This document shows, in pieces, positions 5 through 48,197 of a DNA stretch of 64,000 nt; positions within the stretch are counted from its first letter, which is position 1; the number at the start of each line of letters is the position of its first letter. A program made the translations under genes and the position numbers. The stretch comes from Nitrospira sp. (GTDB lineage: Bacteria > Nitrospirota > Nitrospiria > Nitrospirales > Nitrospiraceae). The notes below the pieces were generated by a model. It saw nothing but the letters and a program-made list of their open reading frames with translations, did no database searches and had not been told where the DNA came from. The stretch is from positions 5,855 to 69,854 of the forward strand of contig JANYBU010000288.1 in NCBI GenBank assembly GCA_025360665.1, in the 5' to 3' direction.

Positions 5-874
5 TCATTGCGCCATCGTCTCCACGAGGTTGAGTACCTGCTCTTTGAGACTGAGCAATGTGTCAATATCGTTGGGGTAGAGATTAAGATCGCCAAAGAC
101 ATTATGGTCACGAAGCGTACCGTCATCGAAGGAACCGGGAACGAGTATGTAGGTCGCCAGTCGGTCTGCCAGGCAGGTGATCATCACTACCTGCCGATGC
201 GAGGGTGCCTGTTCATAGACCCCATAGTAGGCGATGGCCTCAGCCACCTGTGCAGGCAAGGCCCATTCATTGGCGATCAAGATGCCCACTCGAGAATGAT
301 AGCCGTCGAGGAAGGAGAGGATCGCGTTGGGCTCGAGTGGCATATGCAGCTCCGCAGCAATGGTCGTGACGGTCTTGAGCACGACTGGTTTTCCAACAGC
401 ATGCAGGAGCCCGCAGAGGTAGGCGCTTTCCACATTGTACCGCTGTAGGCGTGCGATTTCTTTGGCGTAGACTCCGCTCGCCAGCGCGTGGCGCCAGAGC
501 TGCCGAATGTCCGCTTCATAGCCTGGAATTTTGGCGGCCACATTCTTCAGAGAAACCGTGACGGCAATCTCCGACAGCTGATTCACGCCGAGCATGGCGA
601 CGGCATGCTGGAGCGACACGATCGGAGTCCGAGGCATATAGGCCGGTGAGTTGGCAATTCTCAGCACATGGGCTGCCAATGCCTGGTCTTGGTGGATGAG
701 GGTTGACAGACGGGCAGCGTCTGCCGATGGATCACTGGCCAGGGCCATGACCCGGCCGGCGACTTGTGGGAGCACCGGAAGCTCGATCCGATCCTTGTCG
801 ATCCGTTCGACTAAGGCCTGTTCGACCTGTTCCGGTATTCCCACGTTGTGAGAGTGACCTAGTTCTGTATCCAT
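5..874 (-). CDS. HDOD-domain signalling protein
   Basis: 289-aa ORF. The segment LPVLPQVAGRVMALASDPSADAARLSTLIHQDQALAAHVLRIANSPAY and the later LLHAVGKPV are typical of HDOD (HD-related output domain) proteins. Confidence 0.8.
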   Translation of the reverse strand: MDTELGHSHNVGIPEQVEQALVERIDKDRIELPVLPQVAGRVMALASDPSADAARLSTLIHQDQALAAHVLRIANSPAYMPRTPIVSLQHAVAMLGVNQLSEIAVTVSLKNVAAKIPGYEADIRQLWRHALASGVYAKEIARLQRYNVESAYLCGLLHAVGKPVVLKTVTTIAAELHMPLEPNAILSFLDGYHSRVGILIANEWALPAQVAEAIAYYGVYEQAPSHRQVVMITCLADRLATYILVPGSFDDGTLRDHNVFGDLNLYPNDIDTLLSLKEQVLNLVETMAQ

Positions 875-2175: not shown

Positions 2176-2763
2176 AATTAGGGTCACGTGTCGAGATTGC
2201 TTGACCGAGATCCCTCACGTCCGTGGCATTCTGCGAAGAGCCTCCACCCCTCACACAAGAAGTCGGCATCGGTAGTCTGTAGACTTCGCCCTTCTCAGTT
2301 ATTCTCCTTCTCCTCAGGGTCGTTCATTCCAGTGCCGCAGGGCCTTGGCAGTAGAGTTCGCACTGCTGTTGAAGCGGACTTACCTAGACGCCTCGCCCGG
2401 CAATCAATTCAGACGGCTGGCAGAACGTTTTGTCACGAGCATAGAGCCGAGTAGCCCATGCTGTGGCGAATAGTCCTACCATAGTAGATGATTGGGCCTA
2501 GTATATTAGAGTGGATAGCATACTGGCTCTATTATGCTAGGTGTAAAATACGATTAGCGTATGAGCTATTAGGCACTTTCAGTTATAGGAATCTCATCTA
2601 CGCTTAGTATCGATGCCCGTCCTGTATTTCCTGACAACTCAACGTAGCACAAAACGCTCATGCATACCCCCCCCACGCACGGGGCTACTGATCGTTGCGA
2701 GGATTCTATGCCCGAGTATGCCACCGTCGTCATATGTCATCACCTTTCATGAGGAGCACGCGT

Positions 2764-4173
2764 ATGAGTGTATTGTCTATTCTTGTGGTCGAGGACGATG
2801 AAGGGGTGCAGAGCCTGCTTCGCAGGTTGTTGGCGCAAGAAGGCCATCAGGTCACGGTTGTCGGGAACGGACAGGATGCCATTCGAGTGGCCCAAGAGAT
2901 TCCCGTTCACGTGTTGCTGACGGATTTGAAACTGCCTGATATCGATGGCCTGGCCGTCCTGGAGCGCATCCTTCAGATCGATCCTAAGGTTCTCGGTATT
3001 GTGATGACCGGCTACGGCTCGATTGACGTTGCCATCAAGGCCATGAAGGTCGGCGCATTCGATTTTCTCATAAAACCATTCGACAGCGAGGTCGTCGTAG
3101 CCTCGATTAATAAAGCGTTGGAGGCGCATCGTCGCAGCCAGGACACTCGTGGGTCGCGGAAATCTGTGCGCGTTCCTTATCGGGCGGAGCAGTTAGTCGG
3201 CACCAGCGAACCGATTCGGCGTGTCCTGGATTTCGTCGCGAAGGTTGCAGACCACGACAGCACAGTCTTGATTCAAGGAGAGAGTGGGACCGGCAAGGAG
3301 TTGGTCGCGCGGATGCTGCACTTCAACAGTGTACGCAAAGACCGTCCGTTCGTTCCCGTCAACTGTGGGGCCATTCCCGAAAACCTGCTTGAATCCGAGT
3401 TGTTCGGCCATGAGAAGGGTGCGTTTACCGGCGCCGCCCAGATGCGAATCGGACGCTTTGAATTGGCGCACGGCGGGACGATCTTCCTCGACGAAATCGG
3501 CGAGTTGAGCCTCGGGCTACAAGTGAAACTCCTTCGCGTGCTGCAAGAGCGTTCGTTCGAACGAGTGGGGGGTACGCGAACGATCGACGTGGATGTCCGC
3601 GTCGTCGCCGCCACCAATCAAGATTTGGAGCAGGCCGTCCAGCAGAAGCGCTTCCGAAATGATCTGTACTACCGCCTAAATGTGATTCCGATTACCACGC
3701 CCTCGCTGAAGGAGCGACGGAGTGATATCCCGCAATTGGTGCATCATTTCATGGAGAGATTGAATCGCACGAAGCAAACTGCCATTACAGGCTGTTCCCC
3801 GGATGCGATGACCTGTCTGATGGAACATCACTGGCCTGGAAATATTCGTGAGTTGGAAAACATGATCGAGCGCCTCGTGGTGTTGAAACAATCAGGGGCC
3901 ATCGAGGTTGCTGATCTTCCCGAGCGCGTCTTCCCTAGGCCTGCGGCGTTGGAACCGACGGAGGAACATTTCATCGGATTTACTGATCAGGGGGTCAGTC
4001 TGTCACGAGAACTCGAACAGTTCGAAAACCGCCTCATCGTTGGCGCACTTCGACGGGCCAACGGGATCACCAGCAAAGCTGCCCAGTTGCTCCAGGTAAA
4101 CCGCACCACGCTCGTCGAGAAATTGAAGCGGAAAGGGTTTGCCACGAAGGCTCAGGGCTGTCTTGCCGTCTAG
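2764..4173 (+). CDS. Sigma54-dependent response regulator (NtrC family; FleQ/FlrA-like candidate master regulator)
   Basis: Receiver (ILVVEDDEG..., LLTDLKLPDIDG, LIKPF), AAA+ domain (GESGTGKE, GAFTGA in EKGAFTGA, VRVVAATN) and a C-terminal Fis-type HTH. I place the start at ATG 2764 (MSVLSILVVEDD) behind a GAGGAG RBS, rather than at the track start 2695. Confidence 0.9.
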   Translation: MSVLSILVVEDDEGVQSLLRRLLAQEGHQVTVVGNGQDAIRVAQEIPVHVLLTDLKLPDIDGLAVLERILQIDPKVLGIVMTGYGSIDVAIKAMKVGAFDFLIKPFDSEVVVASINKALEAHRRSQDTRGSRKSVRVPYRAEQLVGTSEPIRRVLDFVAKVADHDSTVLIQGESGTGKELVARMLHFNSVRKDRPFVPVNCGAIPENLLESELFGHEKGAFTGAAQMRIGRFELAHGGTIFLDEIGELSLGLQVKLLRVLQERSFERVGGTRTIDVDVRVVAATNQDLEQAVQQKRFRNDLYYRLNVIPITTPSLKERRSDIPQLVHHFMERLNRTKQTAITGCSPDAMTCLMEHHWPGNIRELENMIERLVVLKQSGAIEVADLPERVFPRPAALEPTEEHFIGFTDQGVSLSRELEQFENRLIVGALRRANGITSKAAQLLQVNRTTLVEKLKRKGFATKAQGCLAV

Positions 4174-6675: not shown

Positions 6676-7983
6676 GTGATGAACGCACACCCTGTTCCGG
6701 CAATCACGGATAGCGATTTGCTGCACGAAGCCTTTCGGAGTTTCGACGATGCGGCGGCGACGTTGCAACAATCCTATCAGACGTTGACGTCTCGGCTGGA
6801 GCAGCTCGACGTGGAACTGGCTGACCGCAACGAGGCGCTGCGGCAGAATTTGTGCGCGAACGAACAGTTACGCGAGCATTTAACGGCGATTGTCGAGTCC
6901 CTTTCGACCGGCTTGCTCGTCATGGATGAAGCAGGAATCATCACCCGCTGCAACCAGGCAGGCACGCAATTGCTCGGACTGGCCCACGAACAGATCGTCG
7001 GACACTCTTTAGCCGTTTGTCTCAAAGAGGCCCGCTTGGACGGCGACGTGTATCCCCTGACCACGCAGCAGGGGGCGGCCGTTTCACTTTCCCAACGAGC
7101 CTTGCAGACAAGCGACGGGCGCCATGCCGGGAGCTTGGCGTTGATTCAGGATGTCACGGCGGTACGAGAACTGGAAGACCGGCTGCAACGCCGCAATCGT
7201 TTGGCGGCCATGGGCGAGATGGTCGGGCGGATTGCCCATGAAATTCGGAACCCGCTCGGCAGTATCGAACTGTTCGCGTCGATGCTGCACCGCGATTTGA
7301 ACGACGCGCCGGGGCTGCGAAGATACGCCGAGCATATCTCGTCGTCTGTCCACATGATGAATCGTCTCTTGACGAATCTTCTGGTCTATACCAAGCCCGA
7401 TTGTTCACATGGAGCGCGGCATGAGACGGAAGCCCTCATGCTGGATGCCTTGACCTTAGCCGCCCATGCCGTCGCCGGCGCCAGAGTCGACATTCGCCTG
7501 GATGTCGATCCTCTGGCACCTCATATCTGGTGCGATGCGGGGCAGATGAAACAAGTGCTCCTCAACTTGATTCTGAACGGCATTCACGCCATGCCGGACG
7601 GTGGAACGCTGACGCTGTCGGCAAGATTGACAGCAGAACCGGCTCCCGGTGTACCGGGTATGTGTCTTTCGGTTTCGGATACCGGTGTCGGCATCCCGGC
7701 GGCGCAGCGCTCGAGGATTTTCGATCCCTTTTTCACCACCAGGGATGAAGGCACCGGGTTAGGACTCGCCATTGTCCACGCGATTGTCGAAGGGCATCGT
7801 GGCCGAATCGACGTCGACAGTGTGGAGGGACGCGGCACCACGTTCTCGATCGCCCTCCCGAATCATCAAGAACCGAGCCGCGTGCCGATACGCGAATCGC
7901 CCGCCATGGCGTCCGGCGACGAGTACAGCGCGGCTGAAATGCTTGATGAGCGACTGCTTGTTGAAGAGGAGACCTCTGCATGA
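6676..7983 (+). CDS. Soluble PAS sensor histidine kinase (FleS/FlrB-like)
   Basis: 435 aa with no TM segment. PAS-like segment (LSTGLLVMDEAGIITRCNQAG), H-box (MVGRIAHEIRNPLGSI), and HATPase N and G boxes (LLNLILNGIHAM, DTGVGIP, GTGLGLAIV). Confidence 0.85.
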   Translation: MMNAHPVPAITDSDLLHEAFRSFDDAAATLQQSYQTLTSRLEQLDVELADRNEALRQNLCANEQLREHLTAIVESLSTGLLVMDEAGIITRCNQAGTQLLGLAHEQIVGHSLAVCLKEARLDGDVYPLTTQQGAAVSLSQRALQTSDGRHAGSLALIQDVTAVRELEDRLQRRNRLAAMGEMVGRIAHEIRNPLGSIELFASMLHRDLNDAPGLRRYAEHISSSVHMMNRLLTNLLVYTKPDCSHGARHETEALMLDALTLAAHAVAGARVDIRLDVDPLAPHIWCDAGQMKQVLLNLILNGIHAMPDGGTLTLSARLTAEPAPGVPGMCLSVSDTGVGIPAAQRSRIFDPFFTTRDEGTGLGLAIVHAIVEGHRGRIDVDSVEGRGTTFSIALPNHQEPSRVPIRESPAMASGDEYSAAEMLDERLLVEEETSA

Positions 7984-9386
7984 CCGACCACAACACAGAA
8001 TGCCCTATGACGGATGTTCCTGCGCAGGCGGAACGAATTTTGATCGTCGACGATGATCCATCCATGCGGACCGCTTTAATGGAGTCTGTCCGTCGTCTAG
8101 GCTTTGACGTGCAGGGTGCGATAGATGGCGCCGATGCCGTCGAGCGGGTTAGCCGCTATAAGCCCTGGCTGGTCGTGACCGATTTGAAGATGCCCCGGCT
8201 CGGCGGACTCGATCTGATTAAGGAGATCAAGAGCCGTTCGCCGCACACGTTGATGGTGCTGATGACCGCCTATGGGACGGTGGAAACCGCCGTGGAGGCC
8301 ATGAAATACGGAGCGAGCGATTACATTCTCAAGCCGTTCTCCACCGACTTGCTGGAGCGAGTCATCGCCAACCTGAAAGCACGCGGAGCGGATGCGTCGA
8401 TGTCACCGTCTGCGCCGATCGACCAGCGGTCTATCCTGACACAAGATCCCGGCATGGTCCGGCTGCTCAGCACCGTTGAGGGCGTCGCCGCGAGCCAAGC
8501 GACCGTCCTCATTCATGGAGAAAGCGGCACAGGGAAGGAACTGCTGGCTCGCTTTATTCACAGCCGAAGCCCACGTGCGCACCGTCCGTTTATTGCTGTG
8601 AATTGCGCGGCGTTACCGGACGGACTCTTGGAGAGCGAACTATTCGGCCATGAGCGGGGGGCGTTTACCGGTGCCATCATGAAGAAAATCGGCAAGTTTG
8701 AGATGGCGCACACCGGCACCTTGTTGTTGGATGAAATCAGCGAAATAAACATGGGCCTGCAGGCCAAGTTGCTCCGCGTGATCCAGGAACGGGAGGTGGA
8801 TCGAGTCGGAGGGCGTGAGCCGGTATCCGTGAACATTCGTGTCATCGCCACGACAAACCGCTCGCTCTACCACGAAGTGGAGCAGGGCCGGTTTCGGGAA
8901 GATTTGTATTACCGTTTGAATGTCTTCCCCATCACGGTGCCTCCGTTACGGGAGCGGCCCGCGGACATTCCGTTGCTCGTGAGGCATTTCGTGGCCGTCT
9001 CAGCGGCTCGCAATGGTCTTCCGCAACCGACGATATCGGAGGCGGCGTACGCCATGCTCCAGGACAGACGATGGAAAGGGAACGTGCGCGAACTGGAGAA
9101 TGTCATGGAACGTGCCGTGCTCTTAGCCGGGAACGGGCCGATTCTCCCGAGCCACGTATTGCTGGACTTCGTCGGACAACCGGTATCATGCGCGCCAGTC
9201 CCATCTGTGCCACTGCCTTCTGCCAACGGGTCGTTGTGGGAAATGGAGCGCGAGTTGATTTTTCAAACCTTGGCGCGAGTCAACGAGAATCGTACGCATG
9301 CGGCGAAGGAACTGGGCATCAGCATTCGAACCTTGCGGAACAAGCTTCGAGAATATCGAGGGACAAGTTGTCAGGTCTTGGCATAA
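7980..9386 (+). CDS. Sigma54-dependent response regulator (FleR/FlrC-like)
   Basis: 468 aa. Receiver (ILIVDDDPS, LVVTDLKMPRLGG, ILKPF), AAA+ domain (GESGTGKE, ERGAFTGA) and C-terminal HTH (HAAKELGISIRTLRNKL). An ATGA overlap with the kinase stop suggests translational coupling. Confidence 0.9.
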   Translation: MTDHNTECPMTDVPAQAERILIVDDDPSMRTALMESVRRLGFDVQGAIDGADAVERVSRYKPWLVVTDLKMPRLGGLDLIKEIKSRSPHTLMVLMTAYGTVETAVEAMKYGASDYILKPFSTDLLERVIANLKARGADASMSPSAPIDQRSILTQDPGMVRLLSTVEGVAASQATVLIHGESGTGKELLARFIHSRSPRAHRPFIAVNCAALPDGLLESELFGHERGAFTGAIMKKIGKFEMAHTGTLLLDEISEINMGLQAKLLRVIQEREVDRVGGREPVSVNIRVIATTNRSLYHEVEQGRFREDLYYRLNVFPITVPPLRERPADIPLLVRHFVAVSAARNGLPQPTISEAAYAMLQDRRWKGNVRELENVMERAVLLAGNGPILPSHVLLDFVGQPVSCAPVPSVPLPSANGSLWEMERELIFQTLARVNENRTHAAKELGISIRTLRNKLREYRGTSCQVLA

Positions 9387-10830: not shown

Positions 10831-12399
10831 ATGCTGTCTATGCTTTCCAAGTTTTCCATCAATCAACGCATGATCATTCTGGTTGCGCTTGCCGGCTCGA
10901 TAGCCGGACTGATCGCCGTCATCTTGTGGACGCAACAGCCCGACATGCAGGTGCTATTTACCAACCTCAATCCAGAGGACGCGGCAGGGATTGTGGATAA
11001 GTTGAAAGAAACGAAGGTGCCGTACGAGACGACAGGCGGGGGCACGACCGTGCTGGTCCCCAGCGCGCAAGTTCATGAGTTGCGATTGCAATTGGCCACC
11101 CAGGGGCTCCCGCACGGAGGTGGAGTGGGATTTGAAATCTTCGATCGATCGTCGATCGGAACGTCTGATTTCGTCCAGAAGCTCAATTATCGTCGTGCGC
11201 TGCAAGGCGAGCTGGCACGGACCATTGCGCAAATGCCGGAGATTGAACGAGCCCGCGTTCACCTTGCCACCCCGGAACGGCGATTATTTGGAAACGACGA
11301 CAATCGCGCACGCGCCTCGATCGTGGTGTCATTGCGAAACGGACAAGCCCTTGCCAAGACTCAAGTGAACGGGATCGTTCACCTCGTGGCCAGCAGCGTT
11401 GAGGGTCTTCAAGTCAAGGATGTCACCATTGTGGATGGCCATGGACGGCTCCTCTCGTGGGCAGCCGGGGGCGACGACGCTGCAGGACTCACCGGCTCGC
11501 AGTTGGAATATCAGCGGACGGTTGAGAAGGATATCGAAACGCGTATCCAAACGATGTTGGAGCGAATCGTCGGACAGAATAAAGCGGTGGTGCGGGTATC
11601 CAGCGTGCTCGATTTTCGAAAAATTGAAACGACGGAAGAGCGGTACGATCCGAACAGTCAAGTCGTTCGGAGCGAACAGCGAGGACAGGAAAAGTCGAAT
11701 GGCGTCAATGGCGTATCCGGTGGCGTGCCCGGCGTCCAGTCGAATGTGCCGCCCGCGACAGACCAAGAGCCGCCTCAAACGAGTTCGACCAGCAATCAAA
11801 CCAAGAACGAAACCGTGAACTACGAAATCAGCCGGACCGTTTCCCGCATCGTGGAATCCAGCGGCAGCATTAAGCAACTCTCTGTGGCGGTGCTCGTGGA
11901 CGGCATTTACGAAGGGGCCAAGGCGTCTGCAGACAGGACATCCGTAGCTGACCAAGCCAAGAAGTATGTCGCACGGTCTGAAGAAGACATGAAGCGTATC
12001 GAGGAAATCGTGAAAAAAGCGATGGGCTACTCGGCAGAGCGTCAGGATCAAGTCCAGGTGACCAACGTGCAATTTGACATCGGGACTGAAGAACCTTCTG
12101 CTCAGGGCATCGAGGCCGCGGCAGATGCGACAAATCCCTTCATGCCCTATCTTCGCTACGGAGTTGGCGGAGTGTTCTTTCTCCTGCTTCTCTTCATGGT
12201 CGTGCGTCCGCTTTTGAACATGCTGGGGGCGACGGGGGCATCATCCGGTGAGGGGAACACGCCGACGCTACCCGCGTCGGTCAGCCAGGTCGAAGCGGCA
12301 TTGGAGGGAAGGCCGCGCTCGCAGCTCATTGAGATGGCCCGCAGCAATCCCGATACGACGGCTGTGGTCGTCAAACAATGGTTGAAGTCTCCTCAGTAG
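10831..12399 (+). CDS. fliF: Flagellar MS-ring protein FliF
   Basis: 522 aa. N-terminal TM segment, conserved LKETKVPYE...GGTTVLVP...ELRLQLATQGLP and RALQGELARTI, and a C-terminal TM segment. Confidence 0.95.
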   Translation: MLSMLSKFSINQRMIILVALAGSIAGLIAVILWTQQPDMQVLFTNLNPEDAAGIVDKLKETKVPYETTGGGTTVLVPSAQVHELRLQLATQGLPHGGGVGFEIFDRSSIGTSDFVQKLNYRRALQGELARTIAQMPEIERARVHLATPERRLFGNDDNRARASIVVSLRNGQALAKTQVNGIVHLVASSVEGLQVKDVTIVDGHGRLLSWAAGGDDAAGLTGSQLEYQRTVEKDIETRIQTMLERIVGQNKAVVRVSSVLDFRKIETTEERYDPNSQVVRSEQRGQEKSNGVNGVSGGVPGVQSNVPPATDQEPPQTSSTSNQTKNETVNYEISRTVSRIVESSGSIKQLSVAVLVDGIYEGAKASADRTSVADQAKKYVARSEEDMKRIEEIVKKAMGYSAERQDQVQVTNVQFDIGTEEPSAQGIEAAADATNPFMPYLRYGVGGVFFLLLLFMVVRPLLNMLGATGASSGEGNTPTLPASVSQVEAALEGRPRSQLIEMARSNPDTTAVVVKQWLKSPQ

Positions 12400-12414
12400 T
12401 AGAGAGTTATAGGG

Positions 12415-13407
12415 ATGGCCATACAATTATCCGGTGAACAGAAAGCCGCGATTCTTCTGCGAGCGATCGGTGAAGATGCCGCGGCGCTGGTCATGAAGAA
12501 CCTCGACCCAAAGGAGATCCGCAAACTGGGAACCTTCATGAGCGACACAGCGCATATTACGCAGGAGGAAGAACTGAGCGTGATGGAGGATTTTCAGAAG
12601 GCCAGTGCGGCCGGCGAGGTGTCGTTTCACGGGAAAGAATACATCAAAACCATTCTGACGAAGGCCCTCGGTCCTGAAAAGGCCGCCCGCCTTCTTGAAT
12701 CCATGAATAGCAGAGTCTATCCAGGACTCGACGCATTGAAGTGGGTGGATGCGAAGAGCGTGTCCCAAATGATCAAGACTGAGCACCCGCAAACGATTTC
12801 CCTCATCATGGCGAATATGGAGCCGGAGCAGGCCAGTCAGGTCATGGTCGGTTTGCCCGCTGAGCTGCGGGCGGATGTGGCCCTGCGGTTGGCAACGATG
12901 GAGGAGGTGCAGCCGGAGGTGCTCGAGGAACTCAGCAGCTCGCTGCAAGACATCCTGGTTGCCAGCACCGGTGCCCATGCCACGAGCCTCGGCGGTGCCA
13001 AGGCGATCGCGAACATTCTTACTCGACTGGATAAAAACACCGAGGGCGGCATTATGACGAAGATCGCGGAGCGGAATCAGACCTTGGCCGATGCGATCCG
13101 CGCCTTGATGTTCGTGTTCGACGATCTGACCAAGCTCGACGATCGTGGGATGCAAGAGCTGATGAAAGAAGTCAGCAAAGAAGATCTTCCCGTAGCGCTT
13201 CGCGGTGCGAGTCCGGACGTCAAAGACAAGTTTCTGAAGAATATGTCGAGCCGAGCCGCCGAAATGTTGAAAGAGGATATGGAGGTGCGAGGACCGGCGA
13301 AGGTGAAGGATGTGGAGAGGGCCCAGCAGAATATCCTCAAGGTGTGCCGCAAACTGGAAGAGGAAGGCCGCATTGTAATTGTCGGTGCTGGGGAGGCGTT
13401 GGTATAA
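12415..13407 (+). CDS. fliG: Flagellar motor switch protein FliG
   Basis: 330 aa. LSGEQKAAILLRAIGEDAAA, the EHPQTISLIMANM motif and the C-terminal MSSRAAEMLKEDME torque-helix region. Confidence 0.95.
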   Translation: MAIQLSGEQKAAILLRAIGEDAAALVMKNLDPKEIRKLGTFMSDTAHITQEEELSVMEDFQKASAAGEVSFHGKEYIKTILTKALGPEKAARLLESMNSRVYPGLDALKWVDAKSVSQMIKTEHPQTISLIMANMEPEQASQVMVGLPAELRADVALRLATMEEVQPEVLEELSSSLQDILVASTGAHATSLGGAKAIANILTRLDKNTEGGIMTKIAERNQTLADAIRALMFVFDDLTKLDDRGMQELMKEVSKEDLPVALRGASPDVKDKFLKNMSSRAAEMLKEDMEVRGPAKVKDVERAQQNILKVCRKLEEEGRIVIVGAGEALV

Positions 13408-14457
13408 ATGACCAGTCCTTTGAGCATGGAGTCCACCGTTTCCCAGCCCGCATCGCGTGCCACGTGGCAGCGAGACGCCTCTATCTTAGTCGTCGACGAT
13501 GAGGTATCGATCCAGAAGTTGCTGGCCGCGATGTTACAGTCGGATGGGTATCGCGTCCGCGCGGTTGGATCGGCGCGAGAGGCGCTCGCGGCGCTAAAGA
13601 CTGCTCCTGCCTCGCTCTTGATCACCGATGTCAAACTGCCGGACCAGGATGGTATCGGTTTACTCCAGCAGGCCTGTGAGCTCGATAGGCGCATGATCGG
13701 CGTCGTCATGACCGGATATGCCAGCGTCGACATCGCCGTTCAAGCCATGAAGGCCGGTGCTGCGGAGTTTCTGATGAAACCCTTCCAGAACGATGTGGTG
13801 TTGTTGACGGTCAAGCGGCTGCTCGAGCTCTACCGCCTGCGAGTCGAAAATGCTGTTCTGAAACAGGCAGTGGTTCGTGACGGAGGCTTGCGTCTTCAGA
13901 ACCTTGCGTTGACCGATTTCGGCACAGGCCAACAGTTCATCGGCACCAGTGGCCCCTCGGACTACGACCAAGGCATTGCCGAGGGCGAACGAAGAGCGGG
14001 CGTGCGAGACGCAGCCGTCCAGCGAGGGGAGCAGACTGTGTTTGCCAACGCAGTCCACCAACTTGATGAGGTCTGGAGGTCGTTCGGTCAGACGATGGAA
14101 GCAGACGTGACGGCATTGGCCTTCAGCTTGGCGACACGCATCTTGCGGGACACCGTTGCCGAACGTCAGGATGTCGTGAGGGCGCAACTGAAAGCCGCCT
14201 TGGCCACGATCCGCGAATCAGGTGTCGTGACAGTGCGAACCCATCCCTCCGATGTCCCCGTCCTTGAAGCGGCGCGCCCGGAGTTGAGCCGCGATCGAGA
14301 GCCGTCATTAGTGCTGAACATTGAAGGCGATGCGTCTCTCTCTCGGGGAAGTTGTGTGGTGCACACGACGAATCGACTGGTCGATGCTTCGTTGGACACG
14401 CAGTTGCTGCGGCTCGGCGAAGTCTTACAGAAGCGAGGACGCGGTGCAGCTCGTTGA
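13408..14457 (+). CDS. fliH: Receiver-domain-FliH fusion (flagellar export ATPase regulator with N-terminal CheY-like REC)
   Basis: 349 aa in the fliH slot, between fliG and fliI. The N-terminal ~120 aa form a complete receiver (ILVVDDEVS, LLITDVKLPDQDG, VVMTGY, LMKPF). The C-terminal part is FliH/YscL-like (VVTVRTHPSDVPVLEAARPEL...LVLNIEGDASLSRGSCVVHTTNRLVDASLDTQL). Confidence 0.8.
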   Translation: MTSPLSMESTVSQPASRATWQRDASILVVDDEVSIQKLLAAMLQSDGYRVRAVGSAREALAALKTAPASLLITDVKLPDQDGIGLLQQACELDRRMIGVVMTGYASVDIAVQAMKAGAAEFLMKPFQNDVVLLTVKRLLELYRLRVENAVLKQAVVRDGGLRLQNLALTDFGTGQQFIGTSGPSDYDQGIAEGERRAGVRDAAVQRGEQTVFANAVHQLDEVWRSFGQTMEADVTALAFSLATRILRDTVAERQDVVRAQLKAALATIRESGVVTVRTHPSDVPVLEAARPELSRDREPSLVLNIEGDASLSRGSCVVHTTNRLVDASLDTQLLRLGEVLQKRGRGAAR

Positions 14458-15751
14458 TCTGATTGAACAGACGGATCCCCTCGCCGTCTCCGGTCGTGTG
14501 GCCCAAGCGGTCGGGATTGTGATCGAGGGATATGGTCCTATGACATCGGTGGGAGAATTGTGCGAAGTCACGCGCGAGGACGGGGAGGGCACTGTGCTGG
14601 CCGAGGTGGTCGGGTTTCGCGGAGACCGTGTGCTACTGATGCCGCTTGGGGAGATGCGGGGGATTGGCCCAGGTAGCCGGCTGTTGATGAAAGGGCACTG
14701 CGCGTCGGTTCCGGTCGGCCCGCATCTGCTTGGCCGAGTGCTGGATGGGCTTGGTGAGCCACTCGATGGAAAGGGGCCCCTGGTTACCGAGCGCCAGTAT
14801 CCGCTCCATGCGGCACCGCTCAATCCGCTCCAGCGCGCGCGCATTACGAAACCGCTCGACCTCGGTGTCCGGGCGATCAATGCCTGTTTGACTTGCGGCC
14901 TGGGTCAAAAGATCGGGATCTTTGCCAGTGCAGGTGTGGGAAAGAGCGTCCTTCTCGGCATGATGAGCCGCTACACCAGAGCCGACGTGAACGTCATTGC
15001 GCTGATCGGCGAACGAGGTAGGGAAGTGAATGAATTCCTTGAGCGTGACCTGACCCCGGCCGCGCTCCAGCGGTCGGTCGTCATCGTTGCGACGTCGGAT
15101 CAACCGCCGCTGGTGCGGTTGCGGGGCGCGTTGATTGCGACCGCCATCGCGGAATATTTTCGTGATTGCGGCAAACAGGTCCTCCTCATGATGGATTCGC
15201 TGACCCGGTTGGCCCACAGCCAGCGTGAAGTGGGGCTCGCCATTGGTGAACCGCCCACCACAAAAGGGTATACGCCATCGGTCTTCACGTTTCTTCCAAA
15301 GCTCCTGGAGCGAGTCGGGACGGGGCCTGGCTCCGGCACGATCACCGGCCTCTATACTGTGCTCATGGATAGCGACGAACTCGCCGATCCCATCGCAGAA
15401 ACGGTCCGGTCGATCCTCGACGGGCATATCGTGCTCTCGCGGCAATTGGCCGCGCGCAACCATTTTCCCGCGATCGATCTGCTCAACAGCACCAGCCGTG
15501 TCATGAAAGACATCGTGAGTCGCGAGCATTATGCCGCGGCTCGGTCCACAGTCGAGCTGATGGCCCGCTACCAACAGTCGGAAGATCTCATTCTCCTGGG
15601 TGCCTATAAGGCCGGGACGAACAAGGCGCTCGATCAGGCCGTGACGGCGCAGGACGGGATCAATGCCTTTCTTCGTCAGGAGATCGAGCAGCCGGCCGAC
15701 CTCGGGGCATCGGTCCAGGACTTACTTGCCCTGGTGAAGAGCACAGTATGA
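14444..15751 (+). CDS. fliI: Flagellum-specific ATPase FliI
   Basis: Walker A (FASAGVGKS), Walker B (VLLMMDSLTR) and a typical FliI/T3SS ATPase body. I propose a GTG start at 14444 behind GAGGA, giving about 435 aa. The track start 14321 lies deep inside fliH. Confidence 0.9.
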   Translation: MQLVDLIEQTDPLAVSGRVAQAVGIVIEGYGPMTSVGELCEVTREDGEGTVLAEVVGFRGDRVLLMPLGEMRGIGPGSRLLMKGHCASVPVGPHLLGRVLDGLGEPLDGKGPLVTERQYPLHAAPLNPLQRARITKPLDLGVRAINACLTCGLGQKIGIFASAGVGKSVLLGMMSRYTRADVNVIALIGERGREVNEFLERDLTPAALQRSVVIVATSDQPPLVRLRGALIATAIAEYFRDCGKQVLLMMDSLTRLAHSQREVGLAIGEPPTTKGYTPSVFTFLPKLLERVGTGPGSGTITGLYTVLMDSDELADPIAETVRSILDGHIVLSRQLAARNHFPAIDLLNSTSRVMKDIVSREHYAAARSTVELMARYQQSEDLILLGAYKAGTNKALDQAVTAQDGINAFLRQEIEQPADLGASVQDLLALVKSTV

Positions 15752-17156: not shown

Positions 17157-18992
17157 ATGGACTTTGGACAACTCAGCACACAGATCGGCACACAACCAGT
17201 CGGTGGCGAACTGAAGGCCTCCGGTGGTGGAGGCCCGCTCGGAGTGCCTTCGCGCGCGCGCGAATTCTCAACTGTTTTTCATGCCGTCTCAGATAAGACC
17301 GGCGGCAGCAGGGGGGCGAAACCTCGTGCCCCTCAAGCTGAAGTCGATGACAGGCCAGCCACCGCAACGCCAGCTGTTCATCGCACCGCGTCGCATAAAG
17401 CCGACGACAACAGGGGAGGGAAGCCTCGTGATCCTCAAGCTAAGACTGATGACGGGCCATCCACCGCGACGCCAGCTGTTCATCGCACCGCGTCGCATAA
17501 GGCCGACGGCAGCACGGATGCGGAGTCTCGCGATCCTCAATCTAAGACTGATGGCGGGCCATCCACGACGATGTCTGATGTTTCCACCATCGCGTCGCAT
17601 GAGACATCCTCTAGCACGGACACAGAGTCTCGCGCCTCTCAGTCTGCGACCGGTGATACCCCATCTACGACAACGTCAGGTTCTGATCCCCTGCTGCTTT
17701 CGCTCCTTGGAGCCTCGATCGTGACGCCGGCATCCACGGTCGCTTCCACGCAGGAGGCTGGCAGTACGGACGTATCAACGAGCCAAGGCGAGGGGCTCTC
17801 AGGTATCTCCGGAACGCCGGCGATTCAGCCGATCGCTCAGCCAGCTGAGGGGGTCACAAGTGCGGTGAGTTCGGAGACCGGGTTCAGTGATCGTGCCGGT
17901 CGCAATACAACATCGGCCACGGGGGATGCTGTTGCCGCCTTATCTTCGCCGATGATTGAGAGTCAACCACTCTCTGCGGGAACCGATAGGATTACACCGG
18001 TTGTTGAGAAATCAGACAGCAGCCACCCTCTCACAGTCGGGCAGGTTCAGGAGGCTGAGAGCAGCGGTCCTCATCAGAAACTCTCGATCATGGCGCATTC
18101 GAAGGAGAGCCTGCCTCAGGCCCTGGTTCCATCAGGACAGGTCACTGCAAATGGACAAGACCCTGCTCAGCTGGCCACTACGGTGACGACTCAGCCGACT
18201 GACAAAAAGGGTGAGGGGGTTGCGGTACAGCCTGACCGGTCATTGGCGCAACAGATTCTGGGGAAGGCCGAGCCCTCGCTTCATCAAAGAAATATGCCTG
18301 CAGAATCCTCTGAGACTCAAAAAGTGGCAGCCTTGTCCGGTCACACGCAGACGGAAGGGCAGGGCTTCAACCAGGCGTCCGACGGTCAGAGGAAGGAAGA
18401 GGGCCTGAAGTGGTTCTCTCATGTCGACCTTCAATCGGCAGAGGCATCGTTGCGCCAGCCACAGGAATCGGTGGCCGAGCCACTCGACGCAGGTCGGCAG
18501 TCGCTCTCCTATCAACAGGGCCAAGGCGGCACACCGTCGAGCATCCAGTCCGTCCCCACGGCGACGGCTCCCCCGCCGTCTCAGGCGAACCGGCTCAGCC
18601 CGGATCCTGAGACCGCACCTGCTCCACTTACGCATAGCGTCCAGTTCGACTTGGCTCCGGCAGACTTCGGCCAACTTCGTGTGCGGGTCGTCCTGTCCGA
18701 CCAAACGGTCCATACGCATCTGTCGACCGACCGCGCCGAACTCGGCCAGATGCTCACGAGCCAGCAGGAGCAATTGAGCACGCAGTTGTCTGCCGCCGGG
18801 TTGGATTTAGGGCGTTTCCAAGTTCAGGTCGATCAGGGGAGAACGAACCAATCCGGGCAGGAGTGGCAGTCCCAGTCCCAGTCCCAGAGCGACACCTCCC
18901 AACAGCAGCGAGATTCTCGGCAGCAGGATGACTCTCCTGAGACTCCGGTTCCTTCGCAAAAGCGAACCGGCATGCTCAGCTTATTTGCATAA
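17157..18992 (+). CDS. fliK: Flagellar hook-length control protein FliK
   Basis: 611 aa, rich in Pro/Ser/Thr/Gln. C-terminal FliK_C-like region (FGQLRVRVVLSDQTVHTHLSTDRAELGQMLTSQQEQLSTQLSAAGLDL). It is located before flgD. Confidence 0.85.
   Translation: MDFGQLSTQIGTQPVGGELKASGGGGPLGVPSRAREFSTVFHAVSDKTGGSRGAKPRAPQAEVDDRPATATPAVHRTASHKADDNRGGKPRDPQAKTDDGPSTATPAVHRTASHKADGSTDAESRDPQSKTDGGPSTTMSDVSTIASHETSSSTDTESRASQSATGDTPSTTTSGSDPLLLSLLGASIVTPASTVASTQEAGSTDVSTSQGEGLSGISGTPAIQPIAQPAEGVTSAVSSETGFSDRAGRNTTSATGDAVAALSSPMIESQPLSAGTDRITPVVEKSDSSHPLTVGQVQEAESSGPHQKLSIMAHSKESLPQALVPSGQVTANGQDPAQLATTVTTQPTDKKGEGVAVQPDRSLAQQILGKAEPSLHQRNMPAESSETQKVAALSGHTQTEGQGFNQASDGQRKEEGLKWFSHVDLQSAEASLRQPQESVAEPLDAGRQSLSYQQGQGGTPSSIQSVPTATAPPPSQANRLSPDPETAPAPLTHSVQFDLAPADFGQLRVRVVLSDQTVHTHLSTDRAELGQMLTSQQEQLSTQLSAAGLDLGRFQVQVDQGRTNQSGQEWQSQSQSQSDTSQQQRDSRQQDDSPETPVPSQKRTGMLSLFA
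17322..17680 (+). repeat. About 3.5 in-frame tandem copies of a 102-nt (34-aa) unit inside fliK
   Basis: Units start at 17322, 17424, 17526 and 17628. Copies 1 and 2 share an identical core, acgccagctgttcatcgcaccgcgtcgcataa (TPAVHRTASHKAD). Copies 3 and 4 are progressively diverged. Confidence 0.9.
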
Positions 18993-23385: not shown

Positions 23386-23748
23386 TTGTCTATGGCAGAC
23401 ATCGAAGTTACGAAGCCCGAATCGAGCGCGTCCCCCCTTCCGGCGGCGTCGTTTCCGTCTGTCGATAATGGGGGAGCAGTGCCGGCTCAAAAAAACCTGG
23501 ATTTCATCCTCGATATTCCCATGCAGGTGACCGTGCAGGTGGGGTCAACCAAGATGGCGATTCGTGATCTGCTTCAGCTCGGACAAGGGTCCGTGGTCGA
23601 ACTGGAAAAGCTTGCGGGCGAGGCGATGGAAGTGTTGGTCAATAACAAGCTGGTTGCGCGAGGCGAAGTGGTGGTAGTGAACGAGAAATACGGCATCCGG
23701 CTGACCGATGTCATCAGTACGGTCGAGCGGGTTCAGCAACTCGGATAG
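23386..23748 (+). CDS. fliN: Flagellar motor switch protein FliN
   Basis: 120 aa. The SpoA-type domain reads LDFILDIPMQVTVQVGSTKMAIRDLLQLGQGSVVELEKLAGEAMEVLVNNKLVARGEVVVVNEKYGIRLTDV. Confidence 0.95.
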   Translation: MSMADIEVTKPESSASPLPAASFPSVDNGGAVPAQKNLDFILDIPMQVTVQVGSTKMAIRDLLQLGQGSVVELEKLAGEAMEVLVNNKLVARGEVVVVNEKYGIRLTDVISTVERVQQLG

Positions 23749-31627: not shown

Positions 31628-32377
31628 ATGGATAATATTGCAACACAACCAAGTCGAGCGGTAGGCCCCGCACTCGAAGTGCAGCGTGAACGGATCATCA
31701 AAGAGTTCGCGCATATTGTGAAGGCGATGGCCCATCGTCTGGCCTTCCGCTTGCCGGCCTATATGGACGCGGAAGACCTCGTCTCAGTCGGCGTCATTGG
31801 ATTGATGGATGCGATGGATAAGTACGACCCTACTCGGGAAGCCAAGTTTAAGACCTATGCGGAGTTTCGTATTCGGGGTGCCATGCTGGATGAAATTCGT
31901 TCCATGGACTGGATTCCTCGTTCGGTTCACGAGCGTGTCTCGTTGTTGCAACGCACGCACACCGAGCTCATGAACAGACTCGGCCGACCACCGACAGATG
32001 AGGAAGTCGCGGCACAATTAAAGATGACCCAAGTCGAGCTCGACGATTTTCTTTCGCGCGCGCGCGGAGCTGTGCTGGTCAGTTTGGACGATATCCAGGT
32101 GAACGAACCGGACGGGCAGAAGATTCTCACCATGCTCGCCGACACACGTCAGCCCGACCCGCTCGCCACCATGCTCGGTGAACGGGTACGCACGACGGTG
32201 ACCAATGCGATCCAGCAATTGCCGGAGAAGGAACGTCTCGTGCTCACCCTGTACTACTATGAAGAGCTCACGATGAAGGAAATCGGCCGCATTCTGAAAG
32301 TCACAGAATCTCGCGTGTGTCAGATCCATACCAAAGCGGTCTTGCACCTCAAGGGGAGCCTTCACGTGCTGCGATGA
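31628..32377 (+). CDS. fliA: Flagellar sigma factor sigma28 (FliA)
   Basis: 249 aa. Region 2 (KFKTYAEFRIRGAMLDEIR) and region 4 HTH (LTMKEIGRILKVTESRVCQIHTKAVLHLK). It occupies the canonical position after flhG. Confidence 0.9.
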   Translation: MDNIATQPSRAVGPALEVQRERIIKEFAHIVKAMAHRLAFRLPAYMDAEDLVSVGVIGLMDAMDKYDPTREAKFKTYAEFRIRGAMLDEIRSMDWIPRSVHERVSLLQRTHTELMNRLGRPPTDEEVAAQLKMTQVELDDFLSRARGAVLVSLDDIQVNEPDGQKILTMLADTRQPDPLATMLGERVRTTVTNAIQQLPEKERLVLTLYYYEELTMKEIGRILKVTESRVCQIHTKAVLHLKGSLHVLR

Positions 32378-44710: not shown

Positions 44711-45190
44711 ATGAAGTTTTCTTCGACTCGCTTCGGTGCACTTGAGGTGCCTGACAGCGCGATTCTGACCTTTCCCTCCGGCATCCTGGGATTTCCGGAC
44801 TGGAGCCGCTACGTCATTCTGGATTACGACACCGACGCGCCGTTCAAGTGGCTTCATTGTATTGAGGAATCAAGTCTGGCATTCGTCGTGCTCGATCCCG
44901 TCCTGTTCCATGCGAATTATCGGGTAGAGATCCCGGATGAAGTCTTGGCGGAAGTGAAGGGCACTGCTGCGGACGCTTTGACTCTGGCTGTCATTCTGAC
45001 CATTCCATCGGAGGATCCAGGCCGTATCACGGCAAATCTTCGCGGGCCACTCCTCATGAACCCCTCCACCAAGCTGTGTAAGCAGATGGTCCTCTCAGAC
45101 GAGTACCCAACCCGCTATCCGATTTTTGCCATGCCGAGTGTGCGCCAGTCCGTACAGACAGAGTCACGGTCCGAAGCCATTCCCGCCTAA
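44711..45190 (+). CDS. fliW: Flagellar assembly factor FliW (CsrA antagonist)
   Basis: 159 aa. FPSGILGFPDWSRYVILDYDTDAPFKWLHCIEESSLAFVVLDP... matches the FliW family. It is adjacent to csrA. Confidence 0.9.
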   Translation: MKFSSTRFGALEVPDSAILTFPSGILGFPDWSRYVILDYDTDAPFKWLHCIEESSLAFVVLDPVLFHANYRVEIPDEVLAEVKGTAADALTLAVILTIPSEDPGRITANLRGPLLMNPSTKLCKQMVLSDEYPTRYPIFAMPSVRQSVQTESRSEAIPA

Positions 45191-45320: not shown

Positions 45321-48197
45321 TTATGCAGCGGGCCTTCTGGCGTCGCGTTGGCGCCTGCGCTGCGCTTCCAGAATCCGAACAAGGCGAAGCACCGCAGCCT
45401 CAAGCTGGGTGTAGATCATCGGGGCATCGAGCAGCGTGCCGAGCCGTCCGAGTGCTTCCAACTGGCCGGCGGCCAAGACGACTTCCGGTGCGCAGAGATT
45501 CCCGGCGGTGCCTTTCAAGAGGTGGGCGGCTTCTTCGATGGCCCGTTGATCTCTACTGGCCAAGGTGGCGCGGATGTTCTCCAACATGGGCTGATAGCGC
45601 TGGAGAAACAGACCAATCAGCTGGTCCAACAGCTCCCGATCGCCGCCGATGTTTCGTAACATCGTGGCCCTATCAAAGATCACCGGGATGGCTTCAGCGC
45701 TATGCTCTGCGTTGGGGTGTGTGGCAATGCCGTCATCCGTGGCCTGCGAATGCCTGGATACCGGAATCCATCGATCGAGGATTCCTTTGAGGTCTTCTTT
45801 TCGTAGGGGCTTCGTTAAATAATCGTCCATACCGGCGGCGAGACAGCGCTCTCGATCTCCTTGCATGGCATTGGCCGTCAACGCGATGATCGGAATATGG
45901 CGTGCCAGGGTCGAGTCGGCTGCGGCAGATTCCTGAGCGGTTGCTTCACGCTGGCGAATGAGTCTGGTCGCCTCGAATCCATCGACGAGCGGCATCTGAC
46001 AGTCCATCAGGACCACGGCATAGGAGCCACGGCCCAATGCGGCCAGCGCTTCTTGACCGTTTTCCACGACGTCCGATTGGTAGCCGAGTTTCTCTAACAT
46101 GCGAACGGTCAGTTTCTGATTGATGAGATTGTCTTCAGCCACCAGGACGCGCGGGGCCGACAGTGTTTCTGCGAGGGTATGCCGTGTGATGAGCAGGGGG
46201 GCAGGCGCGATAACCGCTCTTGGCTTCCCTTCATTCACAAGTCCTGACAATCCCAGCACGGTTCTCAAACAGTTCGAGAGTTGATCGTGGCGGACTGGTT
46301 TGGTGAGATACGCGACGAATCCGGCTTGGCGCGCCAGTTCCGCATGCCCTCGCTGAACGAGTGAGGTGAGGATCACGAGACGGATGAGCGATCCAACAGG
46401 ATGGGCCTTCAGTTCTTTGGCGAGTTGTAATCCATCCTTGCCTGGCATCAACATATCGACGATGGCCACATCATAGAACAAGCCGTTCTCCGCTCGCTGC
46501 TCGATCAGCGCCATGGCTGCGGTGGCATCTGGGGCTTGATCGTCGACCATGCCCCATCCTGTGACCAGGTGATGGACAATCATCCTGTTCGATTCATTGT
46601 CGTCTACGATTAGTACGCGACGTGCGGTCAAATCGGCCGACGGCACGATGGCCAAGGGGGACGTCGTTTGTTTGAGGAAGTGAGCGGTGCACCAGAATGT
46701 GCTGCCGTGACCCGATCGACTGGTGATGCCGACGCTGCCGCCCATTTGTTCGGTGAGCTGTTTCGAAATCGCGAGCCCTAAACCGGTGCCCCCGTATTTG
46801 CGGGACGTCGAACTATCAGCTTGGGTAAACGGTTGGAAGAGGCGAGCCTGCACCTCCGGGGGGATACCGATGCCGCTATCGGTGACTTCGAACCGGATGA
46901 CCACCGCGTCGGCCAAGTCCTTCTCTAGAAAGGCTTGAACCGTCACGTCGCCCTTTTCAGTAAACTTGATCGCATTGCCGACGAAGTTCGTGAGAATCTG
47001 ACGGAGTCGCCCCGGATCGCCGCGGAGACCGGTCGGTACGGACGCATGCACCAGGCCGGTGATTTCCAGTCCTTTGGTCTGCGCCCGCTCCGCAAATTGA
47101 CCCAAGACATTTTCCACCGTCGTGCGAAGATTGAAGTCGATACATTCCAGTTCCAGTTTGCCGGCTTCGATCTTGCCGTACTCAAGAATATCGTTAATCA
47201 AGTTCAGTAAGGCCTCGCCGCACTGTCGAATCGTTTCGATATAGGATTGTTGTTCCTCCGAAGGCTCCGTATCCATCAATAAGTCCGTCATCCCAATGAC
47301 TCCATTCATCGGCGTCCGCAACTCGTGGCTCACGGTCGCCAGGAACGACGCCTTCACGCGAGCGGCATCCTGTGCTTCCTGGAGCGCCTGATCCAATTGA
47401 CGGTTGTTGTTGCGAAGGTGCTCGGCTGCCCGGCACAGCTCCTCTTGGGCCGCCTTGACCTCGGTCATATCCACCGCATACCCTCGGACCAATTGATGAG
47501 AAGGGACTGGGCAGAAAATCCACGTGAAACTTGCCTGAGGTAAGCAGACGTCCTCCCCCCGTATTTCCTGTCCTGATTCGAGGCAGCGTTGAACGAGCAG
47601 CGACAGTTCACGAGGAACCACGGCGGGAAATCCATGGGTGTCGTAGCCAAACTGCTTCAGCAACTGCGTCATCGCAGGATTCGCATAGATGAGGCTCGCA
47701 TCGGCGTCCAACTCGATAACAGGGGAAGGACTTTCTTCCGCCACGCGCACTAGGCGGTCGCGATCTTGCTGCAGCTCTCTCTCGTGAGTCAGGTCACGTA
47801 TCATCAACACCCCACCGGTGTCTCCCTGTGTGTCCAGTGGGGCATAGGTCCATTCAACCGGATATGATTCGTGTGTGGGGCCTGTGAGCGTCGTCTGGGC
47901 TTTTTGTATGGGGAGACGATCGGGAAGGGACTCGTGAATGCGTGTCACGATGTTGTGGCCGGATGTCCCAGGTCGCTGTCGCAATACTTCTTGGAGCGGT
48001 TTCGATGCGCAGAACTCAGCCGAGTGTCCCACGAGGCGGGCGGCTTCAGCGTTCACAGACAAGATGCGAAGCCGACTATCGAGCAGCACCATCCCGATCG
48101 GGAGCCTATCCAGCGTCGCATGGTTCAGAAAGTTCTGGAGCTTGGATGATCTCGAAGGGCGAGATGCCCTGGTGCGAATCTTTGTTGGAGGTTTCAT
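45321..48197 (-). CDS. Hybrid sensor histidine kinase (PAS-HisKA-HATPase-REC-REC-HPt)
   Basis: 958 aa. PAS-like segments, H-box SHELRTPMNGVIG, HATPase (GGTGLGLAISK), two receivers (VAIVDMLMPGKDG; VVLMDCQMPLVDG) and a C-terminal HPt (AHLLKGTAGNL). Confidence 0.9.
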   Translation of the reverse strand: MKPPTKIRTRASRPSRSSKLQNFLNHATLDRLPIGMVLLDSRLRILSVNAEAARLVGHSAEFCASKPLQEVLRQRPGTSGHNIVTRIHESLPDRLPIQKAQTTLTGPTHESYPVEWTYAPLDTQGDTGGVLMIRDLTHERELQQDRDRLVRVAEESPSPVIELDADASLIYANPAMTQLLKQFGYDTHGFPAVVPRELSLLVQRCLESGQEIRGEDVCLPQASFTWIFCPVPSHQLVRGYAVDMTEVKAAQEELCRAAEHLRNNNRQLDQALQEAQDAARVKASFLATVSHELRTPMNGVIGMTDLLMDTEPSEEQQSYIETIRQCGEALLNLINDILEYGKIEAGKLELECIDFNLRTTVENVLGQFAERAQTKGLEITGLVHASVPTGLRGDPGRLRQILTNFVGNAIKFTEKGDVTVQAFLEKDLADAVVIRFEVTDSGIGIPPEVQARLFQPFTQADSSTSRKYGGTGLGLAISKQLTEQMGGSVGITSRSGHGSTFWCTAHFLKQTTSPLAIVPSADLTARRVLIVDDNESNRMIVHHLVTGWGMVDDQAPDATAAMALIEQRAENGLFYDVAIVDMLMPGKDGLQLAKELKAHPVGSLIRLVILTSLVQRGHAELARQAGFVAYLTKPVRHDQLSNCLRTVLGLSGLVNEGKPRAVIAPAPLLITRHTLAETLSAPRVLVAEDNLINQKLTVRMLEKLGYQSDVVENGQEALAALGRGSYAVVLMDCQMPLVDGFEATRLIRQREATAQESAAADSTLARHIPIIALTANAMQGDRERCLAAGMDDYLTKPLRKEDLKGILDRWIPVSRHSQATDDGIATHPNAEHSAEAIPVIFDRATMLRNIGGDRELLDQLIGLFLQRYQPMLENIRATLASRDQRAIEEAAHLLKGTAGNLCAPEVVLAAGQLEALGRLGTLLDAPMIYTQLEAAVLRLVRILEAQRRRQRDARRPAA

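Follow-up and report, generated by a model that had tools for sequence, protein, structure and literature searches.

A conserved receiver-FliH fusion in Nitrospiraceae suggests that flagellar protein export is under direct signalling control

Does the flagellar export apparatus of Nitrospira receive a two-component signal directly, at one of its own structural parts? The question is raised by REC-fliH, a gene at 13408..14457 on the plus strand of a stretch of 64,000 nucleotides from Nitrospira sp. (contig JANYBU010000288.1 of assembly GCA_025360665.1). This whole stretch is called the window hereafter, and all coordinates are counted within it. According to the list of open reading frames, the sequence and Pfam (Response_reg and FliH), REC-fliH encodes a protein of 349 amino acids plus stop, in which a response regulator receiver (REC) domain is joined to FliH, the adaptor through which the flagellar export ATPase is attached at the base of the motor. 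Control of flagellar type III export is usually ascribed to transcription hierarchies, to substrate-specificity switching and to chaperones. We know of no description of a two-component input that acts directly on the FliH-FliI ATPase complex. As judged from the sequence, the presence of an intact receiver on FliH suggests that signalling could control flagellar protein export directly.

The gene stands in the slot of fliH. Upstream lies fliG (12415..13407, plus strand; Pfam FliG_N, FliG_M and FliG_C), whose TAA stop codon at 13405-13407 directly precedes the ATG of REC-fliH at 13408. A first-pass annotation of this DNA had let the ATG overlap the fliG stop; the two genes are adjacent instead, reading TAAATG. 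It had also placed fliI after REC-fliH, which is correct: the gene for the export ATPase FliI, the binding partner of the FliH C-terminal domain, is found at 14444..15751 (plus strand; Pfam ATP-synt_ab and T3SS_ATPase_C). Its likeliest start is the GTG at 14444, which yields a 14-nt overlap with REC-fliH; a short overlap with fliH and a product of 434-435 amino acids are seen in the loci L081 and L086 as well. The gene order fliF-fliG-[REC-fliH]-fliI-fliJ is common to the window and to the loci L081, L082 and L086. A tblastn search with five canonical FliHs as queries found no second fliH in the window. In our reading, the gene encodes the functional FliH of the Nitrospira export apparatus, and it is the only one found in the window.

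Both domains are assigned by Pfam well within its thresholds, so that the complete receiver on a FliH that the first-pass annotation had read from the letters is confirmed. Response_reg (PF00072) covers residues 26-132 (E 1.8e-23, 83.3 bits against a cut-off of 30.2), and FliH (PF02108) covers residues 209-335 (E 7.4e-16, 58.7 bits against a cut-off of 24.1). The C-terminal half is FliH-like in further profile searches, as had been supposed. The NCBIfam FliH model PRK05687 is matched at model positions 71-218 of 223 only. A profile made from canonical FliHs recognises the window protein with E 9.4e-45, and a profile of the C-terminal half retrieves Salmonella FliH (5b0o) first, with E 1.3e-8, followed by ATP synthase delta/OSCP. 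Foldseek with the full-length model returned receiver matches only, and the C-terminal half was therefore modelled and searched on its own. Its best matches are chains of V-ATPase peripheral-stalk subunits and FliH 5b0o, the latter with a low template modelling (TM) score and a long helix that bends differently. Since FliH is homologous to the stalks of rotary ATPases (PMC9114704), matches to OSCP and to V-ATPase stalks are expected for a FliH.

Within this half, the FliH glycine motif (DYDQGIAEGERR) and the stalk helix occupy residues 185-266 (13960..14205, plus strand), modelled as a helix of 82 residues, and G189 and G193 are invariant in 26 FliHs, fused and canonical. Glycine repeats of FliH have been described earlier (PMC2674601), and glycine motif, long helix and C-terminal globular domain together correspond to residues 99-235 of Salmonella FliH. 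The C-terminal globular domain (residues 267-349; 14206..14454, plus strand) is an alpha/beta domain that is presumed to bind FliI. The segment before the glycine motif, residues 150-184 (VLK...LRLQNLALTDFGTG...; 13855..13959, plus strand), is homologous to the N-terminus of canonical FliHs and is presumed to be the docking peptide for the C ring and FlhA. In the AlphaFold2 model, residues 159-184 are of low confidence; the predicted local distance difference test (pLDDT) falls below 50 for residues 164-181, and the segment is flexible in the model.

How the receiver meets FliH can be read from comparison with canonical relatives. These start with FARILKP, CWSRVLK or PVRVLKP and carry a hydrophobic 'YALQ..V' some 10-20 residues further on. 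A profile of 14 canonical FliHs aligns its positions 6-7 ('skvlk') with the internal VLK of three fused proteins and runs through to the C-terminus; in tblastn, residue 9 of P0139, a canonical FliH, stands opposite residue 150 of the window protein. It is thus reasonably supported that the whole FliH is present, apparently including the equivalent of its N-terminal peptide, with receiver and linker joined straight on. Some relatives of the window protein support an intact N-terminal FliH segment more strongly than the window protein does. Since the segment starts near residue 150, after the receiver and its linker, we consider the protein a FliH homologue with a capped N-terminus rather than a canonical FliH: a free extreme N-terminal FliH peptide is missing, and in sequence, context and fold it otherwise agrees with FliH throughout.

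The receiver itself spans residues 26-132 (13483..13803, plus strand). The residues named by the first-pass annotation are all in place, namely the acidic pair D30/D31, the phospho-acceptor D74 (GAT at 13627-13629), T102 and K124-P125, so that the full quintet D30, D31, D74, T102 and K124 is present, together with the switch residue F121. The AlphaFold2 model has a mean pLDDT of 78 and shows a (beta-alpha)5 receiver fold at residues 25-127 with pLDDT of about 90, which Foldseek matches to solved receivers with target-normalised TM scores up to 0.94. Alpha5 continues into a long linker helix (residues 128-158, RLLELYRLRVENAVLKQAVV; 13789..13881, plus strand), a single helix in the model and of the kind known from DctD and NtrC1.

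The receiver had been called 'CheY-like', which holds in a generic sense only. With phmmer, residues 25-163 align with the receiver plus linker of DctD (1qkk/1l5y), and the top matches are FixJ and DctD (linker included), followed by NtrC4, NtrX and NtrC1; CheY chains reach E values of about 1e-11 as compared with about 1e-20 for the receivers of FixJ/DctD/NtrC type. The best-scoring NCBIfam models are likewise those of NtrX, FixJ, AtoC and NtrC receivers. At the position of the GHG motif after beta4, the window protein has G103-Y104-A105. By its sequence, the receiver is to be classed as NtrC1/DctD/FixJ type rather than as CheY specifically, and the protein is not a CheY, as it has two domains and CheY is not its closest receiver subfamily. 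Pfam finds neither Sigma54_activat (AAA+) nor HTH_8 in REC-FliH. Lacking the AAA+ domain, it is not a sigma54 activator and has only receiver and linker in common with that family.

Conservation was assessed in a set of 81 sequences, consisting of the window protein and its counterparts from 80 Nitrospiraceae species genomes that are 43-83% identical to it. No sequence of the set departs from the window protein at D74, T102, F121, K124 or P125 (81/81 identical), and few do so at D30 (80/81) or D31 (77/81). The GHG column is variable (His 25/81, Tyr 21, Ala 20, Ser 13). Mean column conservation is highest in the linker (0.69), followed by the receiver (0.67), and ranges from 0.53 to 0.63 in the FliH parts. 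A strictly conserved phospho-pocket together with the high conservation of receiver and linker speaks for selection on the pocket and for a phosphorylation switch that still works rather than a domain in decay.

The fusion is not peculiar to this contig. A GTDB scan with one genome per species and the C-terminal half as query yielded 224 relatives, the best 80 of which were kept; all of these are Nitrospiraceae, including Ca. Nitrospira defluvii (complete genome), N. lenta and many metagenome-assembled genomes (MAGs) of Nitrospira. An uninterrupted fusion in a single frame is found in 79 of the 80 loci, and the other one ends at a contig edge. A protein search yielded at least 120 clusters from Nitrospira/Nitrospirota assemblies, of 300-353 amino acids (all but one 343-353) and 65-95% identity, with both Pfam domains in all of them. 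Two independent SRA assemblies encode a protein identical to that of the window. The survey of related genomes called for by the first-pass annotation has hence shown orthologous fusions throughout the Nitrospiraceae loci examined: the fusion is fixed across Nitrospiraceae, in every genome examined.

With residues 140-349 as query, 1.84 billion representative proteins were searched exhaustively, which gave 3616 FliH-like clusters, the best 150 of which were inspected. The closest of these are mostly 324-370 amino acids long, and all of those carry a receiver; canonical-length FliHs, mostly of about 200-250 amino acids, are intermixed with the last long clusters and follow after them. A Pfam scan of the 25 matches of at least 280 amino acids among these 150 found a receiver in 11, all from one clade, and in none of the 14 clusters outside that clade; the shorter ones are too short to hold it. 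Independent fusions in distant lineages lie beyond the reach of the best 150 clusters and the best 80 loci. NCBI labels the protein 'response regulator' only, and JGI uses 'FliH', 'FixJ family response regulator' or both. No published description of a receiver-FliH fusion was found in targeted full-text literature searches. Through automated pipelines, which list both domains, the architecture is visible in databases, but it appears uncharacterised. As a separate observation, P0137 (223 amino acids, from a Logan assembly) begins with receiver beta4-alpha4 sequence (MTGHGNIELAVRAMKSG) and leaves the frame ahead of a stretch that resembles FliH; most probably an assembly of poor quality has produced it by frameshifted read-through of a REC-fliH gene.

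Where did the receiver come from? Among the clusters inspected, the nearest unfused FliHs are P0133, P0134, P0135 and P0139 (200-227 amino acids), and P0135 carries the name 'Nitrospirales bacterium'. The loci of P0133 and P0134 read FleR-flgBC-fliEFG-fliH-fliIJ, with a FliH of 213-227 amino acids immediately after fliG, and in these two unfused loci no receiver gene lies between fliG and fliH. Since the nearest relatives have unfused FliHs in the same slot, fliH acquired the receiver at its 5' end around the root of Nitrospiraceae. The sequences thus place the ancestral state as unfused, and the receiver, with its linker of NtrC1/DctD type, as a gain in the ancestor of Nitrospiraceae.

Within the window, the nearest relative of the REC-FliH receiver is that of a REC-sigma54 activator at 2695..4173 (plus strand; Pfam), with 41% identity over 133 amino acids and E 2.7e-35 in tblastn. 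The receiver of a second such regulator, the FleR/FlrC-like activator at 7980..9386 (plus strand; Pfam), is 31% identical. The likeness to the receivers of these two regulators had been noted before and is real. With identities of only 41% and 31%, a recent duplication of a neighbouring regulator was rejected as the source, and even the former receiver is too distant to be named as donor.

One degenerate form is known from two independent assemblies (loci L086 and L087). P0138, at 8001-9107 of L086 (Nitrospiraceae MAG contig JAXLZC010000001.1), stands in the normal fliH slot with D74 replaced by G, T102 by V and K124 by V. Its RLRxEN linker motif is lost along with the phospho-site, and the FliH-type motif V(V/L)K...AFxLD is kept.

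With canonical FliH/SctL (Salmonella FliH 5b0o, PF02108), REC-FliH shares operon slot, glycine motif, stalk helix and C-terminal domain, in profile as well as in fold, and presumably it does the canonical job of a peripheral stalk and adaptor of the FliI ATPase. It differs by about 150 extra N-terminal residues, which hold receiver and linker helix. The N-terminus that docks to FliN and FlhA is free in canonical FliH, whereas it is internal in REC-FliH and lacks the aromatic residue of the motif. With regulators of NtrC1/DctD type (1qkk, 1l5y, 1ny5, 1zy2), the receiver sequence and the long alpha5/linker helix align, and part of the clade has His at the GHG position. Unlike these regulators, REC-FliH has no AAA+ sigma54 and DNA-binding domains, has GYA for GHG in the window protein, and its output is a building block of a secretion machine. 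In function, the closest analogue is PorX of the PorXY system, a response regulator that contacts a secretion machine, namely the PorL motor subunit of type IX secretion (PMC5005315, PMC10951265); PorX chains are among the fold matches of the receiver. PorX differs in being a protein of its own, with an output domain of PglZ/alkaline-phosphatase type and in an unrelated system, whereas the receiver of REC-FliH is covalently part of the machine. The systems FlgSR, FlrBC and FleSR have the same gene neighbourhood and the same logic, in that a soluble kinase couples early basal-body assembly to signalling (PMC3760246, PMC7064773). They act on transcription through sigma54 activators, which sets them apart from REC-FliH. 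We know of no receiver on an export component that has been described for them.

Which kinase might address the receiver is a question of its own. A PAS-HisKA-HATPase kinase of FleS/FlrB type is encoded at 6676..7983 (plus strand; Pfam), and the FleR/FlrC-like activator is its presumed cognate regulator. A hybrid kinase with PAS-HisKA-HATPase-REC-REC-Hpt architecture lies at 45321..48197 (minus strand; Pfam) and could donate phosphate via its Hpt domain. Neither has a transmembrane segment (the maximum Kyte-Doolittle 19-residue mean of the former is 1.36). Both kinases are thus soluble and built as the first-pass annotation had stated, but the role of phosphodonor that it gave them is a guess, and both may be listed as candidates. 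PAS kinase and FleR-like regulator precede flgB in the window and in L086. A FleR-type regulator before flgB is found in unfused relatives too and is therefore not specific to the fusion. At the alpha1 positions, which commonly set the kinase specificity of receivers, REC-FliH has S, I, L, A and M as compared with S, M, A, E and S in FleR, and the regulator at 2695 differs also. Just upstream of the FleS-like kinase, separated by 2 nt, lies a gene for a TPR protein of 720 amino acids (4512-6674, plus strand). The order TPR protein, kinase, regulator recurs in L086 (TPR protein at 1-1093), where the genes overlap by 4 nt; the TPR protein may belong to the flagellar two-component module.

Salmonella FliH divides its work among three regions: its extreme N-terminus attaches FliH2-FliI to FliN and FlhA, a coiled coil in the middle brings about dimerisation, and FliI is held by the C-terminal domains (PMC9114704). 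In receivers of NtrC1/DctD type, alpha4-beta5-alpha5 and the coiled-coil linker hold two subunits together in a tight dimer, which rearranges on phosphorylation and sets the output domain free; the meaning of linker and GHG motif follows from the same work (PMC10696123). As both FliH and such receivers are dimeric, each FliH2 spoke probably bears a pair of receivers at its C-ring end. We hypothesize that phosphorylation of REC-FliH alters how the FliH2-FliI complex docks at the C ring and export gate, or its geometry there, and we assign this reading a probability of roughly 0.5. A receiver pair would cap every FliH dimer at its C-ring end, and the phosphorylation state of D74 would expose, occlude or re-orient the neighbouring docking segment, which in Salmonella binds FliN and FlhA. 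Docking or turnover of FliH2-FliI at the export gate, and hence the rate of flagellar assembly, would then depend on a two-component signal. This would be a post-translational control alongside the transcriptional cascade of FleS/FleR and sigma54 that is encoded a few kb upstream. Such gating agrees with a phospho-acceptor pocket that is strictly conserved and with a receiver that adjoins the FliH docking segment.

Several points weigh against this hypothesis. The canonical FliH profile aligns strictly with the window protein only from residue 183 onwards, and its envelope begins at residue 150. The W or F that precedes VLK in canonical relatives (CWSRVLK, FARILK) is replaced by E-N in the fusions, and the docking mode may thus differ from that of Salmonella. 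Retention of the domain by P0138 without a phospho-acceptor indicates that the receiver can persist without phosphorylation. The monomer model (predicted TM score 0.41) is not reliable with regard to domain orientation and dimerisation. Nitrospira is, moreover, not genetically tractable.

Cytoplasmic flagellar kinases of Campylobacter, Vibrio and Pseudomonas require MS ring, rotor and flagellar type III secretion system for activity, and direct contact was not found for FlrB and FleS (PMC3760246, PMC7064773). REC-FliH could link such a kinase to export, in that the assembled MS ring, rotor and secretion system activate the kinase, which then phosphorylates both FleR and the FliH receiver. Phosphorylated FleR would switch on the rod and hook genes and the phosphorylated FliH receiver would license docking of the ATPase, so that one phosphorylation event would bring transcription and secretion competence into step. 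We regard this link as unlikely. If true, the interaction sought in vain for FlrB and FleS in Vibrio and Pseudomonas would exist in Nitrospiraceae as a covalent link. The signal might also run in the opposite direction, with the FliH receiver as an on-machine dock, phospho-acceptor or sink for the soluble FleS/FlrB-like kinase, which would report assembly to FleR-sigma54 transcription, or compete with it, at an early checkpoint. The window does hold the set of a polar flagellate (flhF, flhG, soluble PAS kinase, sigma54 regulator), a REC domain is inherently a kinase-binding module, and the dependence of such kinases on assembled basal structures in other flagellates would fit. This reversal nevertheless seems doubtful to us: the two-component system evidently does without the fusion in those unfused relatives that have a FleR-like regulator before flgB, REC-FliH and FleR do not agree in alpha1, and a receiver that served as a sink alone would have no use for the conserved linker helix on FliH.

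A receiver that is mainly structural, providing extra dimerisation or C-ring contact on the FliH stalk with no regulatory phosphorylation, is suggested by the P0138 lineage, where the domain is retained in the fliH slot with D74, T102 and K124 replaced, and by aspartate-less receivers with structural roles, for which there are precedents (PMC4395418). Yet sequences with 43-83% overall identity share D74, T102, F121 and K124 without exception (81/81), which is difficult to account for if no function depends on phosphorylation, and in P0138 the linker motif decays where the pocket decays; a purely structural role is consequently quite improbable. Still less do we expect the tethered receiver to be a resident CheY that modulates switching or braking of the motor through FliM/FliN and leaves export unaffected. 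The FliH N-terminus would indeed place it near FliN and FliM (PMC9114704), and CheY structures are among its fold matches, but both its closest sequence relatives and its linker helix are of FixJ/DctD/NtrC type. That a mis-assembly or frameshift has joined a stand-alone response regulator to fliH was a possibility only a priori, together with the frameshifted look of P0137, and may practically be dismissed. It is ruled out by the 79 of 80 species genomes with one uninterrupted reading frame, the remaining one being cut by a contig end, by the at least 120 clusters with both domains, and by the same protein in two separate sequencing runs; furthermore, fliG and fliH are not separated by a receiver gene in the unfused loci examined.

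The surroundings of REC-fliH form a complete flagellar cluster (flgBC, fliEFG, REC-fliH, fliIJ, fliK, flgDE, fliLMN, fliOP, fliR, flhBA), with flhF, flhG, fliA, a GGDEF protein, flgFG and fliW further downstream. Its 5' end holds an HDOD protein, a LuxR-type regulator and the REC-sigma54 activator at 2695..4173, then the TPR protein. FliN, the canonical partner to which the FliH N-terminus docks, is encoded as a small C-ring SPOA protein at 23392..23748 (plus strand; Pfam FliMN_C, E 8.7e-25). A scan of 9300-16300 detected no promoters or terminators above chance level, which is consistent with a single tightly packed operon. A short FliH made from an internal start was considered as well. Read from the sequence, there are no ATG codons between M123 and M230, and the only alternative starts are a GTG at V155 and TTG codons at L161 and L168. 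None of the three is preceded by a Shine-Dalgarno sequence at the correct spacing; a GGAGG ends 1 nt 5' of the L161 TTG. The short form was set aside on these sequence grounds, for want of a well-placed start signal.

Some neighbours deserve mention in their own right. After fliJ, an open reading frame of 255 amino acids (16188-16955, plus strand) has just a weak match to MgtE_N; a similar unannotated gene follows fliJ in L081, L082 and L086, and it may be a conserved flagellar protein of this lineage. The gene fliK (17157..18992) contains a 102-bp tandem repeat at 17309-17634, with 2.5-3 copies at 80-85% match. FliK is the hook-length ruler; in its N-terminal part the repeat encodes a recurring unit of 34 amino acids rich in Pro, Thr and Ala (...PSTATPAVHRTASHKAD...), and a change in repeat copy number could alter the length of the ruler. 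A GGDEF diguanylate cyclase gene (32521-33327, plus strand) lies directly 3' of fliA (31628..32377) and before flgF and flgG. An HD-GYP-like protein (DUF3391 and HD_5) is encoded beside the hybrid kinase (45321-49537, minus strand), a short way downstream of fliW (44711..45190). Genes related to c-di-GMP signalling thus flank the flagellar cluster, namely those of the HD-GYP-like protein, of the HDOD protein (5..874) and of the GGDEF protein.

For annotation, the finding calls for a correction, as the NCBI label 'response regulator' hides the sole FliH seen in this flagellar cluster. The known outputs of response regulators now extend to a structural part of a secretion machine, and D74 together with the linker helix offers a handle on how the FliH N-terminus engages the C ring. 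An invariant phospho-site on FliH points to a post-translational checkpoint of flagellar assembly in nitrite oxidisers and comammox bacteria of global importance.

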